Source of the DNA: a virus
Taxonomy: Duplodnaviria > Heunggongvirae > Uroviricota > Caudoviricetes
Virus record (IMG/VR): IMGVR_UViG_3300021431_000080
Span: 68,460 to 132,459 of that record
Reading direction: 5' to 3' (one strand)
Length of the DNA stretch: 64,000 nt
Part shown: positions 20,916 through 30,434 of the stretch, one piece after another
Layout: each line of letters starts with the position of its first letter
Position numbering within the stretch: the first letter of the stretch is position 1
Notes under the pieces: generated by a model
Seen by the model: the letters and a program-made list of their open reading frames with translations, nothing else
Databases searched by the model: none
What the model was told of the DNA's origin: nothing
Program-made: the position numbers and the translations under genes

Positions 20916-20935
20916 TTTGCACTGTGAAACGGAAA
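20916..20935 (+). promoter_or_regulatory. Conserved promoter motif copy at the head of the tRNA island
   Basis: AAGCAGTATCTTTGCACTGT, followed by a ~230-nt GNRA/UUCG-containing leader and then tRNA-Pro. Confidence 0.5.
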
Positions 20936-21167
20936 CGGAACGCCTGACGAACGGTTCGGAGTACAGCCGAAAGGCAGCGAGTTATTTGACAAGTCTGGGA
21001 ATGGATTAAAAAATTGAAAACTTATCTTCGGATCGTCCCTATCGGGATGATTTGAGGAACAAGATAGCTGTGGGGAGCGAAATGGAACCGATCGGGTATA
21101 ATCCGAACGGATCTGCTCCCCTTGGCGACAATGAGAATCCGCAGCGATGCGGGTTCTTTTTAAAACA

Positions 21168-21241
21168 GGGTAGTGCGGTAGTTGGTCACCGGCTTCATTT
21201 GGGATGAAGATTTTCACGCAGGTTCGAGTCCTGTCTACCCT
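21168..21241 (+). tRNA. tRNA-Pro(TGG)
   Basis: Cloverleaf with acceptor GGGTAGT/TCTACCC, anticodon loop TTTGGGA and T-arm AGGTTCGAGTCCT. Confidence 0.6.
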
Positions 21242-21623
21242 ACAATCAACAAGTTAACTATTTTTATTTAAAGTAATACTTGAAGAAAATCCATCGCAAT
21301 TTATCGCCCGTTTTTATCCGCCATCCCCCCAGTTCGGCTGCCGATATATGGCTCCGACATAATGATGACCGCGTTGTCCGCCACACACGGCGGCGTAAGC
21401 GGCACTCGGCGGTTCACCTTGAGCGGCAACCCGCCGCTATGTGGGCACATGTACAGCGATGGTAATGGAACCGAGGTAAGGGAATGGGATTTTTTGCGGA
21501 GTGAATGATGCCCGATTTATGCTCCGCTGCAAGGGTATGCCAGAACAATCGGATAACTGGCGTATGTGTAGGTTCCAACCCATAGCCGTTCCTGTCAGAC
21601 GGCTTACAAAAATGACAGAAAAT

Positions 21624-21823
21624 TGGTAGGTAGCGAAGTGGTTAAACGCGGCGGACTGTAATGGTGAGTAAACACGCTAAAAATCGATTCTGTATTGGTC
21701 GAGAGGTCGAAGACGTAGGGTGACACCGGAGTAAGCTAAAAACTTGCAGACGTTGGTTCGAATCCAACATACAGAACAATCCGCTCCCTTTTGGGTTCGG
21801 GGGTTCAAATCCCTCCCTGCCAA
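21624..21823 (+). tRNA. tRNA-Tyr(GTA), type II, interrupted by a ~117-nt intervening sequence at 37/38
   Basis: 5' part TGGTAGG-TA-GCG..CGC-G-GCGGA-CTGTAA at 21624-21661. 3' part A-TCCGC, extra arm CCC-TTTT-GGG, T-arm GGGGGTTCAAATCCCTC and acceptor CCTGCCA at 21779-21823. The insert 21662-21778 carries its own T-arm/acceptor minihelix (TCTGTAT...GTTGGTTCGAATCCAAC-ATACAGA). Confidence 0.5.
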
Positions 21824-22050
21824 CTCGCGGATTGGTGAAATATGTGCCTGTAAAAAGACTAATCAATGTAGCGCGTGAAGCTGGCGCGTGATGATTTAGC
21901 TGGGTCCTTCAGTATGAAATCTGGATCTGATGTACAGCGGAGAAAGAAAGTAAAAACAAGGTTTGGAGTTATCACGCCTCCCTGATATGGAGGTATTTAC
22001 GTGGAAGTCGTAGTCCGCAACCAATACATGGTTCATCCATGATTCTAACT

Positions 22051-22127
22051 TGGGGCGTATCCCCTGTGTCTTATACACACTTGAAAGGGTAGTCGGTTAC
22101 ACGTGGGTTCGATTCCCACCGCCCCAA
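22051..22127 (+). ncRNA. tRNA-like minihelix element (perfect acceptor stem plus canonical T-arm, no recognisable D or anticodon arms)
   Basis: TGGGGCG...45-nt filler...GTGGGTTCGATTCCCAC-CGCCCCA-A. The acceptor is 7/7 paired but the interior cannot be folded as a cloverleaf. Confidence 0.4.
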
Positions 22128-22641
22128 CACAGAGCGTTGAAACGATATATACGCTCAATGTAGGGGATCAAGGGACGATTGGAAGGCAGTTCCTCCCTGA
22201 ATAAAAACGAGATAGATTCTCGTTTCCCTGCTATCGGGAAAAGTTATATCTTGACACAAGCCAACCAGCAAGATACTCGAAGCGAAATTTACACGAAAGA
22301 GAGTCGATGCAAGACAGTCACGAAGCGATAAAGAAACACCGAAAGAGTGGCAATCATAACAAAGATCAACTTGGTCAGAGTTTATAGGGAAAGGAAAGCT
22401 CGTGCTGATGTCTTACCGTATCGGCGAATGTTCCCTTGCCGAATATAGGGGGCTCCAACAACATGGAATACCATTGAGGACGACAGAAAATACGGTTTTA
22501 CTACGAGAAGCGCAGGTTGATGAAGTGTTACACCGCGTTATACGCGGTATTGCCTCTTTAGCAGTTTATTCTTTCGCTGCATGTACAGAACATTTCGTTT
22601 TGTTATGATTTTTAAGAATTTCAATTTATTATAAGATATAT

Positions 22642-22779
22642 GGCGGGATGGTGAAAAAAAAGATTTTATCTCTCCGATTTATTCTCGGTTCAACCGTTGC
22701 CATTCGGCAGAGTTACTTCGAGGTATACACAATTGTATTTTGACACAATTTTTTGTAGGTTCAAATCCTACTCCCGCCA
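22642..22779 (+). ncRNA. tRNA-like element: 7-bp acceptor stem and T-arm separated by a ~100-nt insert
   Basis: GGCGGGA at 22642-22648 pairs with TCCCGCC at 22772-22778, next to GTAGGTTCAAATCCTAC. The interior contains ACACAATT direct repeats and a second TTCAACC loop. Confidence 0.35.
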
Positions 22780-23126
22780 CAAATGCAGGATGATCTTCTG
22801 GGTGGAGTCCCGGAGTCTGCTCCAATAACGGAAGGAAAACCGTGCAAACCAGGTCTATAGGCGAAACTTACCTACGGTACGTCAGGGTTTCATCATTCGC
22901 AGCAGGTGTCTGTTATTCTAGACAGGACAGCCACCACAGAGTTCAAGCTCGCTGATAAGGATGGTGTGTAATGTCTCCCTGTGACGGCAACAAGTTAGAC
23001 GCAGCGGCGGTTCTCTGTTTAGAGTGATTCCTGACGGAAACAGAAAGGGGCGGGCAGCTTCGTCCCGAGGTGTTTACATTCACCGCCCAGAACAAAAGAT
23101 GCAAAACATAAACAAGTCCGTCAATC

Positions 23127-23200
23127 TGGCAGTTTAGTTTAAACGGCAAAACATTGAGGTCAAAAGCCTCTATTTTCGGGTTCGAGTCCCGATCTGCCAC
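23127..23200 (+). tRNA. tRNA-like gene with a non-canonical anticodon loop TCAAAAG
   Basis: Canonical acceptor (TGGCAGT/TCTGCCA), D-arm and T-arm (TCGGGTTCGAGTCCCGA). Anticodon stem GAGG/CCTC encloses loop TCAAAAG, which lacks U33. Confidence 0.35.
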
Positions 23201-23208
23201 AAAAGTAT

Positions 23209-23280
23209 GGGGAGGTAGCTCAGTAGGTAGAGCATCGGATTGAAGATCCGACTGCGGGGGTCCGATTCCCTCCCTTCCCG
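23209..23280 (+). tRNA. tRNA-Phe(GAA)
   Basis: GGGGAGG-TA-GCTC..GAGC, anticodon loop TTGAAGA, T-loop TCCGATT. Confidence 0.65.
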
Positions 23281-23373
23281 CGCGTGTCTTCTTCCTTGGT
23301 TTCGGACATAATGGTGAAATATTAGAGCCTTGGTGACATTGGCACCGTTCGAATATGGGGAATGGTGCAGCTC

Positions 23374-23444
23374 AGGTTGGTAGTTTAATGGTAGAATGTC
23401 GGTCTCCAAAACCGAAGATCTTAGTTCGATTCTAGGTCGACCTG
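23374..23444 (+). tRNA. tRNA-Trp(CCA)
   Basis: Anticodon stem TCGGT/ACCGA with loop CTCCAAA; T-arm CTTAGTTCGATTCTAGG. Confidence 0.6.
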
Positions 23445-23456
23445 CAAAATACAACA

Positions 23457-29224: not shown

Positions 29225-29307
29225 CAAGATACAGGATGCCTATTGTTCGCGAACAGCGTCCTGTCACGTGGAAATCGTGCGGTGGGTCTCCCGATAGTAG
29301 CCGCCAT

Positions 29308-29380
29308 GCGACAATAGCTCAGCTGGCAGAGCGTTGGCTTCCCAAGCCGAAGGTCACGGGTTCGATCCCCGCTTGTCGCT
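29308..29380 (+). tRNA. tRNA-Gly(CCC)
   Basis: GCGACAA-TA-GCTC-AGCTGGCA-GAGC, anticodon loop TTCCCAA. Confidence 0.6.
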
Positions 29381-29583
29381 CTATTGGTCGAAGGTTCTTC
29401 ACACCAGAAACCATACTGTCAGTCTCGGCAGTGCAATGAGAGACCGTAAACGATCGAAACGTCAACAGATCCCCAACGCGACGGTGAGGGAAACGATGCC
29501 GAAGAAGCTTTGTTCAGGTGGTTGCGAGCTCTACAACAGATGTTCAGGCAATGTGAAGATAAGTCTGATAAAACCACTTATAT

Positions 29584-29657
29584 AGCGGGATGGACTGGAG
29601 AGGCTCCAGCTCGGCCTCATAAACCGAATGACGTGGGTTCAAATCCCACTCCCGCTA
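29584..29657 (+). tRNA. tRNA-Met/Ile2(CAT), third CAT species, slightly atypical 8-9 region
   Basis: Acceptor AGCGGGA/TCCCGCT, anticodon stem TCGGC/ACCGA with loop CTCATAA, T-arm GTGGGTTCAAATCCCAC. Confidence 0.5.
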
Positions 29658-29801
29658 CGAAAAACGACTATATATAGCTCAGAAGAGCCTGCAGGTCGAA
29701 GTCTAATGTAGTACATGGCGAACACAACAGGGAACTCGACAAAATCAAGCGGATGCTTGTTAGGTGACTACGCCGTGGGAGTTCGGTCGTTTTCTTTTTA
29801 T

Positions 29802-29885
29802 GCCCAGGTGGTGGAATTGGTAGACACGCCAGCTTGAGGGGCTGGTCCCGATTACGGGGTGCAGGTTCAAGTCCTGTCCTGGGCA
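29802..29885 (+). tRNA. tRNA-Leu(GAG), type II
   Basis: GCCCAGG-TG-GTG-GAATTGGTAGA-CAC, anticodon stem CCAGC/GCTGG with loop TTGAGGG, extra arm CCCG-ATTA-CGGG, T-arm GCAGGTTCAAGTCCTGT. Confidence 0.7.
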
Positions 29886-30023
29886 CAATGATTTTTGGCT
29901 AAGCGGTAACGAGCCAAACTGGTCATTAGTCAGATTGCCCCTGATGAATGTTGGGTGTCCGTGAAAGTCGGAGGAGAGTCTTCCAGTGTATCGTGTTCTA
30001 CTCCTAAAACAAGTAACAAGTAC

Positions 30024-30096
30024 GCCCTGTTAGTTCAGTAGGCAGAACAACTGTTTCGTAAACAGTAGGTCATTGGTTCAAATCCAGTACGGGGCT
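30024..30096 (+). tRNA. tRNA-Thr(CGT)
   Basis: Anticodon stem ACTGT/ACAGT with loop TTCGTAA; T-arm ATTGGTTCAAATCCAGT. Confidence 0.65.
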
Positions 30097-30105
30097 CAAA
30101 CACAC

Positions 30106-30178
30106 AGGGGATTGGTGTAGTGGTCTAGCATAGCGGTCTCCAAAACCGCAGACGGGGGCTCGAATCCTCCATCCCCTG
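30106..30178 (+). tRNA. tRNA-Trp(CCA), second copy, T-loop CTCGAAT
   Basis: Anticodon stem GCGGT/ACCGC with loop CTCCAAA. Confidence 0.55.
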
Positions 30179-30184
30179 CTAAAT

Positions 30185-30339
30185 GGTTCCATAGTTCAAC
30201 GGATAGAACATCGGTCTTTTACAGAGTTGTTCACTGGGACGAACATTTCCTGTATTTCCAAACAGGTGGATAAATGAGAGTTCGAATCTCTATACAGGAA
30301 CCTAAACCGGTAATGAGCGTTCGATTCGCTCTGGGACCA
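30185..30339 (+). tRNA. tRNA-Lys(TTT)-like gene interrupted by an 83-nt insert after the anticodon loop
   Basis: 5' part GGTTCCA-TA-GTTC-AACGGATA-GAAC-A-TCGGT-CTTTTAC at 30185-30222. 3' part ACCGG-TAAT-GAGCGTTCGATTCGCTC-TGGGACC-A at 30306-30339. Insert 30223-30305 opens with AGAGTTGTTCACTGGGACGAAC, the same motif as the 24798 insert, and carries the minihelix TCCTGTA...GAGAGTTCGAATCTCTA-TACAGGA. Confidence 0.5.
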
Positions 30340-30375
30340 CTAATTTTTTCAACCAAATTTTCAACTTTCATTTTT

Positions 30376-30395
30376 TATCGGTATCTTTGCATTGT
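30376..30395 (+). promoter_or_regulatory. Conserved promoter motif variant (TATCGGTATCTTTGCATTG)
   Basis: Lies ~40 nt upstream of the NfeD ATG. Confidence 0.45.
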
Positions 30396-30434
30396 AATCA
30401 ATTTATCATTTACAAATACAAAAAATAAAACACA

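Follow-up and report, generated by a model that had tools for sequence, protein, structure and literature searches.

Does the large transfer RNA (tRNA) island of a phage of the Caudoviricetes lack the genes for some amino acids, or are these genes present in a form that is easily overlooked? The question is raised by a 64,000-nucleotide (nt) stretch of viral DNA, positions 68,460 to 132,459 of IMG/VR record IMGVR_UViG_3300021431_000080 (hereafter the window, in whose coordinates positions are given). A first, sequence-only reading had described a tRNA island of very large size, some of its members non-canonical, and had found by eye no tRNA gene for Asn or Gln. The island is there: it comprises 39 tRNA genes, all on the plus strand between 21.1 and 44.7 kb. 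A Gln(CTG) gene and an Asn(GTT) gene are both present (Table 1), the latter holding an 83-nt intron. It is one of four genes, for Tyr, Asn, Arg(TCT) and Leu(TAA), each of which is split inside the anticodon loop by a tRNA-like intron of 76-117 nt in sense orientation. All four had been missed, hence the wrong claim that Asn was absent. Once they are counted, the near-complete tRNA set serves all 20 amino acids, and there is an amber suppressor as well. They are the window's only genes for their anticodons, and in the case of Tyr and Asn the sole source of the amino acid.

ARAGORN in its intron mode gave three of these genes, each of about 156 nt; the fourth, Tyr, was found by reading the sequence. 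Part of the Tyr intron (21689-21777), which lies inside the anticodon loop of this type-II tRNA, is reported by ARAGORN as 'tRNA-???'. The Leu gene was labelled Ile(tat) in intron mode, a label that is wrong because the D-arm matches that of the phage Leu(GAG) gene; TTT/AAGC (the slash marks the exon-exon junction) is the only junction that gives a fitting 7-nt loop. After intron removal all four genes give clean cloverleaves in ARAGORN. The interrupted Arg(TCT) gene has the D-loop GGAUA (A20) of the other Arg genes, and the Asn and Arg genes share a 44-mer at 82% identity (repeat family D15). At the Asn locus a comparison between strains is possible. Two strains from other samples (L008 and L009), with flanks 99.3-99.6% identical to the window, have between window positions 24784 and 24913 an Asn(GTT) gene that is uninterrupted and differs in sequence. 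The interrupted Asn gene is thus a positional replacement.

What are these introns? Devoto et al. 2019 (PMC6784885) described 'enigmatic' tRNA introns in Lak megaphages and stated that none had been reported from phages until then. They obtained no Rfam match, noted that one Lak intron 'may encode a tRNA', and offered neither a consensus structure, a splice rule nor a mechanism. No later study of Lak-type tRNA introns was found in the searchable literature. We parsed together the Lak introns (PMC6784885 Table S6), the four window introns, one from a relative of the window phage (L012) and six from two IMG/VR contigs (L038 and L114). The L012 intron was left out of the pair counts, which cover 15 members, because it has a non-canonical 8-nt T-loop. 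In part of the rows MAFFT places the acceptor-like stem one column off; the model was built on the majority register, and the pairs were counted from a parse made by hand. A loose DNA pattern gave at least five further introns from IMG/VR loci after structural filtering, most of the matches listed being ordinary tRNAs. An exact 16-mer of the Asn and Arg introns gave only chance matches in coding DNA of IMG/VR.

The introns have a common architecture. They start with ATA (9 members), TTA (5) or ATG (1), that is, with WUA (W = A or U) in 14 of the 15. There follow a hairpin of 3-6 base pairs (bp) with a loop that is usually ARUAAA (AGUAAA or AAUAAA), and an A-rich linker of 9-14 nt, often with the motif AAAUYR. 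The rest of the intron resembles a small tRNA. This mini-tRNA has an 8-bp acceptor-like stem, the 3' strand of which abuts a T-arm (loop UUCGAWU, with G53-C61 invariant), and between the 5' strand of the stem and the T-arm lie 12-56 nt with a D-loop-like RUGG. A single terminal C closes the intron in 15/15 members, including all four from the window. There are 13 distinct sequences of the 8-bp stem among the 15 members, with three to five Watson-Crick or wobble pair types per position, and this comparison argues strongly for covariation of its two strands. The stem was placed where all eight pairs form, so that the weight rests on there being such a site in every member, always equally far from the T-arm and from the end of the intron.

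A covariance model (R1) built from the non-window members only finds the Tyr intron with 39.4 bits (E 3e-6) and the Leu intron with 37.8 bits (E 7e-6), both matches ending at the final C; these two introns also have the ARUAAA-loop hairpin and the AAAUYR linker. From the Arg intron R1 picks out the mini-tRNA part only (21 bits), and it gives no match to the Asn intron. The window introns are new members of the rarely noticed and mechanistically unexplained Lak-type family.

The architecture gives a junction rule, namely that the intron runs from the WUA to the C that follows the stem. When Lak Thr(UGU) is spliced accordingly (intron = UUA...stem+C), the product is identical at 73/73 positions, in one piece, to the intron-less allele of Lak-C1; in Lak-A1 and A2 the Thr(UGU) match is divided over 187 nt. 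The rule is exact. The host position varies among members (34/35, 35/36 or 36/37), and so the cut sites are set by the intron and not measured from the body of the host tRNA. With the host position varying in this way, the anticodon itself would be assembled by splicing. This bears on annotation. A Lak-A1 gene published as Tyr(GTA) (MK250015, 500004-500167; L017, 15001-15165) is probably Asn(GTT), because the rule gives CUGU/UAA, the discriminator base is G73, and the closest uninterrupted relatives are annotated as tRNA-Asn genes. The L038 contig has an orthologue of the window Asn body, with the same Tyr/Asn ambiguity.

Could the insertions have disabled the genes they interrupt? A mobile tRNA-derived DNA element that was never spliced out would account for the presence/absence polymorphism at the DNA level and for the homing endonuclease genes that adjoin interrupted genes, but we consider pseudogenes highly improbable. 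The exons are intact and fold perfectly, and the four genes supply just what an otherwise complete set would lack. Every insertion lies in the anticodon loop, in sense orientation. Phages that are only distantly related share the family, the structure of which is preserved by covariation, and identical Lak introns are conserved across cohorts. Homologs of the window HNH endonuclease adjoin intron-bearing tRNAs in L114, L038 and Lak-B, which fits spread by homing together with a cassette swap at the Asn locus.

Neither of two familiar kinds of tRNA intron accounts for the family. Group I introns were rejected since there is no match to the P3-P9 core, the last base is C in 15/15 members where group I would have a terminal G, and the length is 76-117 nt; Rfam searches gave no match at E <= 1 to the group I model (Intron_gpI) or to any other ribozyme family. 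Bulge-helix-bulge introns were rejected likewise: the geometry that they require, with a 4-bp helix between two 3-nt bulges bearing the splice sites, is possible in 1/13 members, which is below chance expectation. A new small self-splicing or self-cleaving ribozyme is a different matter. Here a catalytic fold would be built from the hairpin, linker and mini-tRNA, and an alternative pairing of exon nt 32-34 with the 5' strand of the hairpin (P1) would act like the P1 helix of group I introns with its guide sequence. By inspection of the sequences, pairing between this strand of P1 and host loop nt 32-35, beside the splice site, looks possible in 9/14 members. The conserved single-stranded motifs (ARUAAA, AAAUYR) would suit a ribozyme, the intron sets its own boundaries as self-splicing introns do, and group I introns of bacterial tRNAs also occur at 34/35, as in cyanobacterial tRNA-Leu(UAA). 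Even so we judge this quite unlikely. The introns are far smaller than any known group I or group II intron, the terminal G and the Rfam match are missing, and the last nt of the 5' exon is not consistently U. Furthermore, the mini-tRNA is retained in the Asn and Arg introns although the conserved motifs are absent from them, and the exon pairing may reflect common descent among introns in tRNAs with GNN anticodons.

What, then, would remove the introns? Starting from what is established, namely the architecture, its covariation, the exact junctions and the allelic replacement of an intact gene, we lean slightly towards a mechanism in which tRNA end-processing enzymes excise the nested mini-tRNA and a ligase joins the exons, all enzymatic steps being ones that we infer. 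The mini-tRNA would be recognized by the enzymes that mature the ends of ordinary tRNAs. A 3' tRNA endonuclease would cut right after the C that follows the mini-tRNA stem, which is the 3' splice site, and RNase P could cut at the 5' end of the mini-tRNA. A separate further activity would set the 5' splice site, three nt upstream of the hairpin. An RNA ligase would then seal the anticodon loop, the exon halves being kept together by the fold of the host tRNA.

The flanks of the mini-tRNA are consistent with this proposal. They are like those of the ordinary tRNA genes: the eighth pair is followed by C and then by AA of the exon (A37 and A38 in introns at 36/37). The ordinary genes encode N73-C-A-A, not CCA (C74 in 33/35, A75 in 21/35, A76 in 30/35). 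Upstream they have A(-2) in 23/35 and Y(-1) in 29/35; N(-1) can pair with N73 in 22/35, and U(-1) often with A73. The 3' and upstream flank patterns suggest unusual 3'-end processing, and the flanks shared with the mini-tRNA suggest that the 3' splice site coincides with the ordinary tRNA 3'-end site in this phage. Model R1 also gives scores to ordinary tRNAs when their leaders are included.

Several observations weigh against the end-processing mechanism. Removal of the introns from RNA is itself a prediction, and the support for it from intron-less alleles is indirect. If RNase P and the 3' endonuclease did the cutting, about 28 nt of hairpin and linker would stay attached to the 5' exon, and the precise 5' cut would still need an explanation. 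The Asn and Arg introns have neither the ARUAAA loop nor the AAAUYR motif, with a variant 5' module instead. The linker has an A content of 0.64 against 0.35 in ordinary tRNA leaders. A copied leader was rejected on this ground, and the 5' module, not being a simple leader copy, may bind a dedicated factor. Finally, Pfam, PHROGs and PDB-sequence searches of the open reading frames (ORFs) of the island turned up no RNA ligase, RtcB or splicing endonuclease, and none was identified in the 64-kb window.

Another alternative is that a dedicated phage endonuclease and ligase recognize the hairpin, linker and mini-tRNA and do both the cutting and the sealing, host RNase P and 3' endonuclease being uninvolved. 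Conserved single-stranded motifs suggest protein contacts, and large phages commonly carry RNA repair enzymes; in phage T4, Rnl1 and Pnkp seal breaks in the anticodon loop. There is also a metallophosphoesterase gene within the island (43520-44131). But no such dedicated enzyme was identified in the window, a 430-aa island ORF is an ORFan, and only HNH endonucleases are common to the tRNA islands of the window and of L038, L114 or Lak. We think this alternative unlikely.

Taken further, processing of the nested mini-tRNA by end-maturation enzymes would amount to a third route of tRNA splicing, in which a selfish intron brings its own mini-tRNA, RNase P and the 3' endonuclease cut it out, and the exons are sealed by a ligase, in a family spread over unrelated large phages of gut anaerobes. 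We put this forward tentatively, and doubt it more than we believe it. If true, the route would stand beside group I self-splicing and the bulge-helix-bulge endonuclease, and the anticodon would exist only after splicing.

Whatever removes them, Lak-type introns are not a peculiarity of Lak phages; they form a family with a defined structure, and its members occur in large phages that are unrelated. New here are the consensus structure, an exact splice rule that predicts junctions, and a testable link to tRNA end processing. The rule makes the exit of a 76-117 nt intron from a bacterial-type tRNA directly testable. There is a practical side as well. Standard callers miss or mis-assign the interrupted genes (Tyr was missed entirely and Leu called Ile), so that published tRNA complements of large phages, and the codon-usage arguments built on them, are likely to be incomplete.

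The phage loci that we fetched also contain other anticodon-loop inserts and tRNA-like arrays. A different small family occurs in L081 (4649-5201), where three adjacent tRNAs, a His tRNA, a CUA suppressor and a Lys tRNA, have inserts of 26-44 nt that share AATCGAGACTTGWYAAAGYCTTAAACTGCAA. A 32-nt insert is found in the Asn anticodon loop of L020/L134. Inserts of about 450-500 nt in L076 (2955-3524) and L099 (2191-2716) may be group I introns. L073 (7183-12208) and L129 (8094-11127) have arrays of type-II-like units, the ends of which (AGTCAGGTGGCGGAATTGGTAGACGC ... ACAGGTTCGAATCCTGTCCTGACTAC) are nearly identical and the middles of which vary greatly.

Table 1. Features of the island and predicted exon-exon junctions (window coordinates; a slash within a junction marks the splice point)
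Feature	Position	Strand	Basis
tRNA-Tyr(GTA), type II, split 36/37	21624..21824	+	read by eye; spliced form a clean 84-nt Tyr(gta), ARAGORN
Tyr intron, 117 nt: AUG, hairpin P1 GUG-AGUAAA-CAC, linker, mini-tRNA domain	21661..21777	+	covariance model R1
Predicted junction, Tyr: GCGGACTGTA/AATCCGC			
tRNA-Asn(GTT), G73, split 34/35	24761..24916	+	ARAGORN with introns allowed; spliced form clean Asn(gtt)
Asn intron, 83 nt, variant 5' module ACAGAGU-GGUUC-ACUGGGAC-GAACC	24794..24876	+	sequence parse
Predicted junction, Asn: CCTGACTG/TTAATCAGG (short form ...CACCTGACTG/TTAATCAGGGG...)			
tRNA-Arg(TCT), split 34/35	30185..30340	+	ARAGORN with introns allowed; spliced form clean Arg(tct)
Arg intron, 83 nt, 5' module as in Asn intron	30219..30301	+	R1 partial match, 21 bits
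Predicted junction, Arg: TCGGTCTT/CTAAACCGG			
tRNA-Leu(TAA), type II, split 34/35	44517..44674	+	Rfam 46 bits over 157 nt; spliced form clean Leu(taa)
Leu intron, 76 nt	44552..44627	+	R1
Predicted junction, Leu: ATGGATTT/AAGCTCCAT			
tRNA-Pro(TGG), first island gene	21167..21243	+	ARAGORN; Rfam 52.1 bits
Orphan tRNA-like module: 8-bp acceptor TTGGGGCG with CGCCCCAA, T-arm, no anticodon arm	22051..22130	+	T-arm scan, fold
Orphan tRNA-like module: acceptor TGGCGGGA with TCCCGCCA, T-arm, around a ~110-nt core	22641..22788	+	T-arm scan, fold
tRNA-Phe(AAA), C33 and A34, loop UCAAAAG	23127..23200	+	ARAGORN; Rfam 36.7 bits
tRNA-Lys(TTT), T-loop AUCAUAC (A54)	23535..23608	+	ARAGORN; Rfam
HNH endonuclease gene, free-standing	23687..24517	+	Pfam HNH
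Amber-suppressor tRNA(CTA), C33, loop CCCUAAA	26055..26126	+	ARAGORN label 'Pyl(cta)'; Rfam 42.9 bits
tRNA-Pro(AGG), A34	26259..26331	+	ARAGORN; Rfam 54.6 bits
tRNA-Glu(TTC), 21-nt variable region with hairpin GGGG-UAUAAAAG-CCCC	28173..28262	+	ARAGORN; Rfam 56 bits
tRNA-Glu(CTC), C33, loop CCCUCAA	28266..28339	+	ARAGORN; Rfam
tRNA-like fragment: CAT anticodon arm and T-arm, without acceptor stem or D arm	28350..28432	+	T-arm scan, fold
Structured spacer RNA, multi-branch, 9-bp closing stem, T-loop hairpin	29046..29152	+	minimum free energy -48.1 kcal/mol, z -5.1
Orphan tRNA-like module: acceptor TGAAGTCA with TGACTTCA, T-arm	33543..33686	+	T-arm scan, fold
Orphan tRNA-like module: acceptor CGACGGA with TTCGTTG, long arm, T-arm	33937..34050	+	T-arm scan, fold
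Ser(UGA)-like tRNA: 8-bp acceptor, 4-bp T stem, 6-7 bp D stem, long variable arm, G73	34315..34400	+	Rfam tRNA-Sec 37.1 bits, fold
GIY-YIG endonuclease gene	34461..35390	+	Pfam
Transfer-messenger RNA (tmRNA), tag peptide GNNTYRLAA	35898..36238	+	ARAGORN; Rfam 101 bits
tRNA-Gln(CTG)	40378..40450	+	ARAGORN; Rfam 52 bits
Second HNH endonuclease gene	40454..41095	+	PHROGs
Candidate Y RNA A: long terminal stem, 3-nt UCA bulge, enclosing D arm, CUU anticodon arm, T arm	41294..41434	+	fold; Rfam tRNA 45.6 bits, model positions 5-66
Candidate Y RNA B: same bulged stem motif, permuted tRNA-like domain (T arm first), terminator 3'	41579..41725	+	fold z -3.9; Rfam tRNA 32.8 bits
Ro60 homolog, TROVE and vWA domains	41805..43448	+	Pfam; phrog_850

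The locus is the translation-RNA island of a jumbo phage of roughly 290 kb. ARAGORN makes 35 tRNA calls plus the tmRNA, every one on the plus strand between 21167 and 44303, and Rfam gives 36 tRNA matches plus the tmRNA above the gathering score. A scan for T-arm motifs found 48 on the plus strand, 47 of them within 21.2-44.7 kb, and 10 on the minus strand. The sequence-only reading had put about 30 tRNA genes into about 9.5 kb; the count for 20916-30400 is 27, made up of 24 ordinary and three interrupted genes. Its HNH and GIY-YIG endonuclease genes are borne out by Pfam, whereas the spacers that it called GNRA-rich are significantly structured only in some cases. Besides tRNA genes, the island holds the tmRNA, two HNH genes, one GIY-YIG gene, a Ro60 gene with two candidate Y-type RNAs upstream, and several orphan tRNA-like modules.

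To what sort of phage does the island belong? The sequence of an island protein recurs without a single difference on a 286,399-bp metagenome contig, as well as on shorter contigs of other samples. Samples in which the phage occurs include ENA ERZ12302815/22/52/53 and SRR873605/610. The window DnaK is about 50% identical to the DnaK proteins of metagenomic phages of 480-735 kb and of Lak megaphages, and the window also encodes a family A DNA polymerase and members of other PHROG phage families. Together with the 286-kb contig, these matches indicate a large phage. A DNA search of the INPHARED phage collection gave no close relative of the island. The nearest cellular relatives of a flotillin encoded by the phage are those of Prevotella and other Bacteroidales, and a Bacteroidales host is a reasonable inference from this similarity. 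Used as an anchor in the search for relatives, flotillin had one success (L012); in more distant relatives it lies outside the tRNA island. By coordinate mapping, window positions 52654-64000 lie beyond the end of the otherwise 100%-matching 286-kb contig, indicating another assembly or a circularly permuted genome. The window further encodes a cell-wall amidase, an ORF (49045-49938) matching the CBASS inhibitor Acb3 (Pfam, E 3e-32), and an AAA ATPase (7734-8720) with a weak intein-splicing-domain match. The phage genome may contain an insertion sequence, as suggested by a transposase gene at 3781-4977 (phrog_506, E 4e-136).

The island itself is ordinary for a huge phage but unusually rich in non-canonical members, and such departures from canonical tRNA form recur in other large phages. 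Most of the oddities listed in the sequence-only reading hold up. Two Trp(CCA) genes (23374 and 30106) are present, as are the C33 loops CCCTAAA (26055), CCCTCAA (28266) and TCAAAAG (23127), the T-loop ATCATAC at 23535 and the AGG anticodon at 26259. Of three supposed CAT species those at 28809 and 29584 stand, and the third, at about 28350-28432, is a fragment called by neither ARAGORN nor Rfam. ARAGORN and Rfam did not give the flagged genes canonical structures. The loop of Pro(AGG), UUAGGGA, parallels that of Pro(UGG), UUUGGGA, and A34 tRNAs are present in Lak phages too. T-loops of the A54 type (AUCRURM) are found in Lys(UUU) 23535 and the Ser-like gene at 34315, and also in both versions of the Asn gene, namely in the exon of the interrupted one and in the alternative allele.

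A canonical Glu(TTC) gene is indeed absent. The gene at 28173 had been taken for a type-II tRNA with a Glu anticodon; the long variable arm and the anticodon are real, but the body is not of the Leu, Ser or Tyr type. Its D-arm, CTAGTGGTCCAGG, equals that of the normal Glu tRNA of L012, and the gene is an ordinary Glu body with an added variable-region hairpin. Long-arm tRNAs with anticodons other than those of Leu, Ser and Tyr make up about 24/692 (~3%) of the tRNAs in the phage loci that we fetched. Met(CAT), Cys(GCA) and Trp(CCA) tRNAs with long variable arms were seen in L012 (3652-3740, 13785-13870) and L017 (13746-13837).

The Ser(UGA)-like tRNA at 34315 has an Rfam tRNA-Sec score below the gathering score of 47, and ARAGORN does not call it. 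Mukai and colleagues reportedly described allo-tRNAs and tRNA-Sec-like 8/4 tRNAs in 2017. The predicted fold of 34315-34400 would resemble them in its 8-bp acceptor and 4-bp T stem, in the length of its D stem and variable arm, and in having G73. The anticodon UGA is a normal one for Ser, so no recoding is implied. Is there recoding elsewhere? The CUA suppressor suggests that TAG is recoded, as in Lak. TAG is the stop of 10/53 long ORFs in the window, and only one pair of ORFs in the same frame is divided by it (38060-39400, 283 + 158 aa, TAG at 38909-38911). This TAG is probably a true stop, because a PHROG match ends there. Recoding of TAG has no support within the window, which holds no late genes.

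Each of the four orphan modules has a core that is not tRNA, enclosed by a T-arm and an acceptor-like stem (7-8 bp). C-A(-A) follows directly 3' in three of them (not in 33937-34050), as in ordinary tRNA genes, and the modules may be processing signals. The one at 22051-22130 has a weak Rfam match (24.7 bits) to the tRNA-like part of tmRNA; the 3' end of that at 22641-22788 is 86% identical to the 3' end of Met 29584 (repeat family D6). The spacer at 21040-21166 is strongly structured (z -4.7), like that at 29046-29152, and neither has an Rfam match.

A gene at 41320 had been described as Lys(CTT)-like with an unpaired acceptor. It has no acceptor stem, as the span of its Rfam match shows, and it is better read as a candidate for the tRNA-like core of a Y-type RNA. 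It lies 400 nt upstream of the Ro60 ORF, within the first of two candidate Y RNAs, A and B, that directly precede this ORF. Folding predicts that A and B share an AUGCC / AGUAU-UCA motif and an outer stem that covaries, in a comparison of two sequences only. The Rfam YrlA and Y_RNA models gave no match at E <= 10 in 41200-41810. A search of IMG/VR with peptide patterns found no relatives of the Ro60 protein; local tblastn found a 52%-identical Ro60 in IMG/VR contig L040, likewise in a tRNA island with adjoining tRNA-like modules. Y RNAs with tRNA-like domains beside Ro60 are known in bacteria and phages (YrlA/Yrn1; Chen et al. 2014, PMC4201824). Like these, the window candidates are tRNA-like non-coding RNAs that adjoin a TROVE gene, they are predicted to have a long terminal stem with a bulge, and one of them, B, has the permuted order T arm, acceptor-like stem-loop, D arm. 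They differ in giving no match to the Rfam models and in that A retains a full anticodon arm.

How does the locus compare with other tRNA clusters and introns? The tRNA cluster of phage T4, with its SegB homing endonuclease, has eight tRNAs and is not known to contain tRNA introns. Both clusters contain free-standing endonuclease genes (GIY-YIG, HNH), and in both cases tRNA cassettes are swapped between related phages, as at the window Asn locus. Group I introns in bacterial tRNAs likewise sit in the anticodon loop, including position 34/35, and are mobile and associated with homing endonucleases; examples are those of tRNA-Asn and tRNA-Asp in Patescibacteria (PMC13011429). They are 200 nt or more long, against 76-117 nt for the window introns. 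Archaeal and eukaryal tRNA introns are also short and lie in or near the anticodon loop, some of them at non-canonical positions, and they depend on proteins, as proposed for the window introns; but they are cut by the splicing endonuclease at a bulge-helix-bulge, whereas the defining element here is the nested mini-tRNA. The closest match is with the Lak introns. The window phage is unrelated to Lak at the DNA level and has 42% GC against 26%, three of its introns are at 34/35 and not 36/37, and two have a different 5' module. With Lak the window introns nevertheless share the initial WUA, the hairpin, the A-rich linker, the 8-bp stem, the T-arm and the final C.

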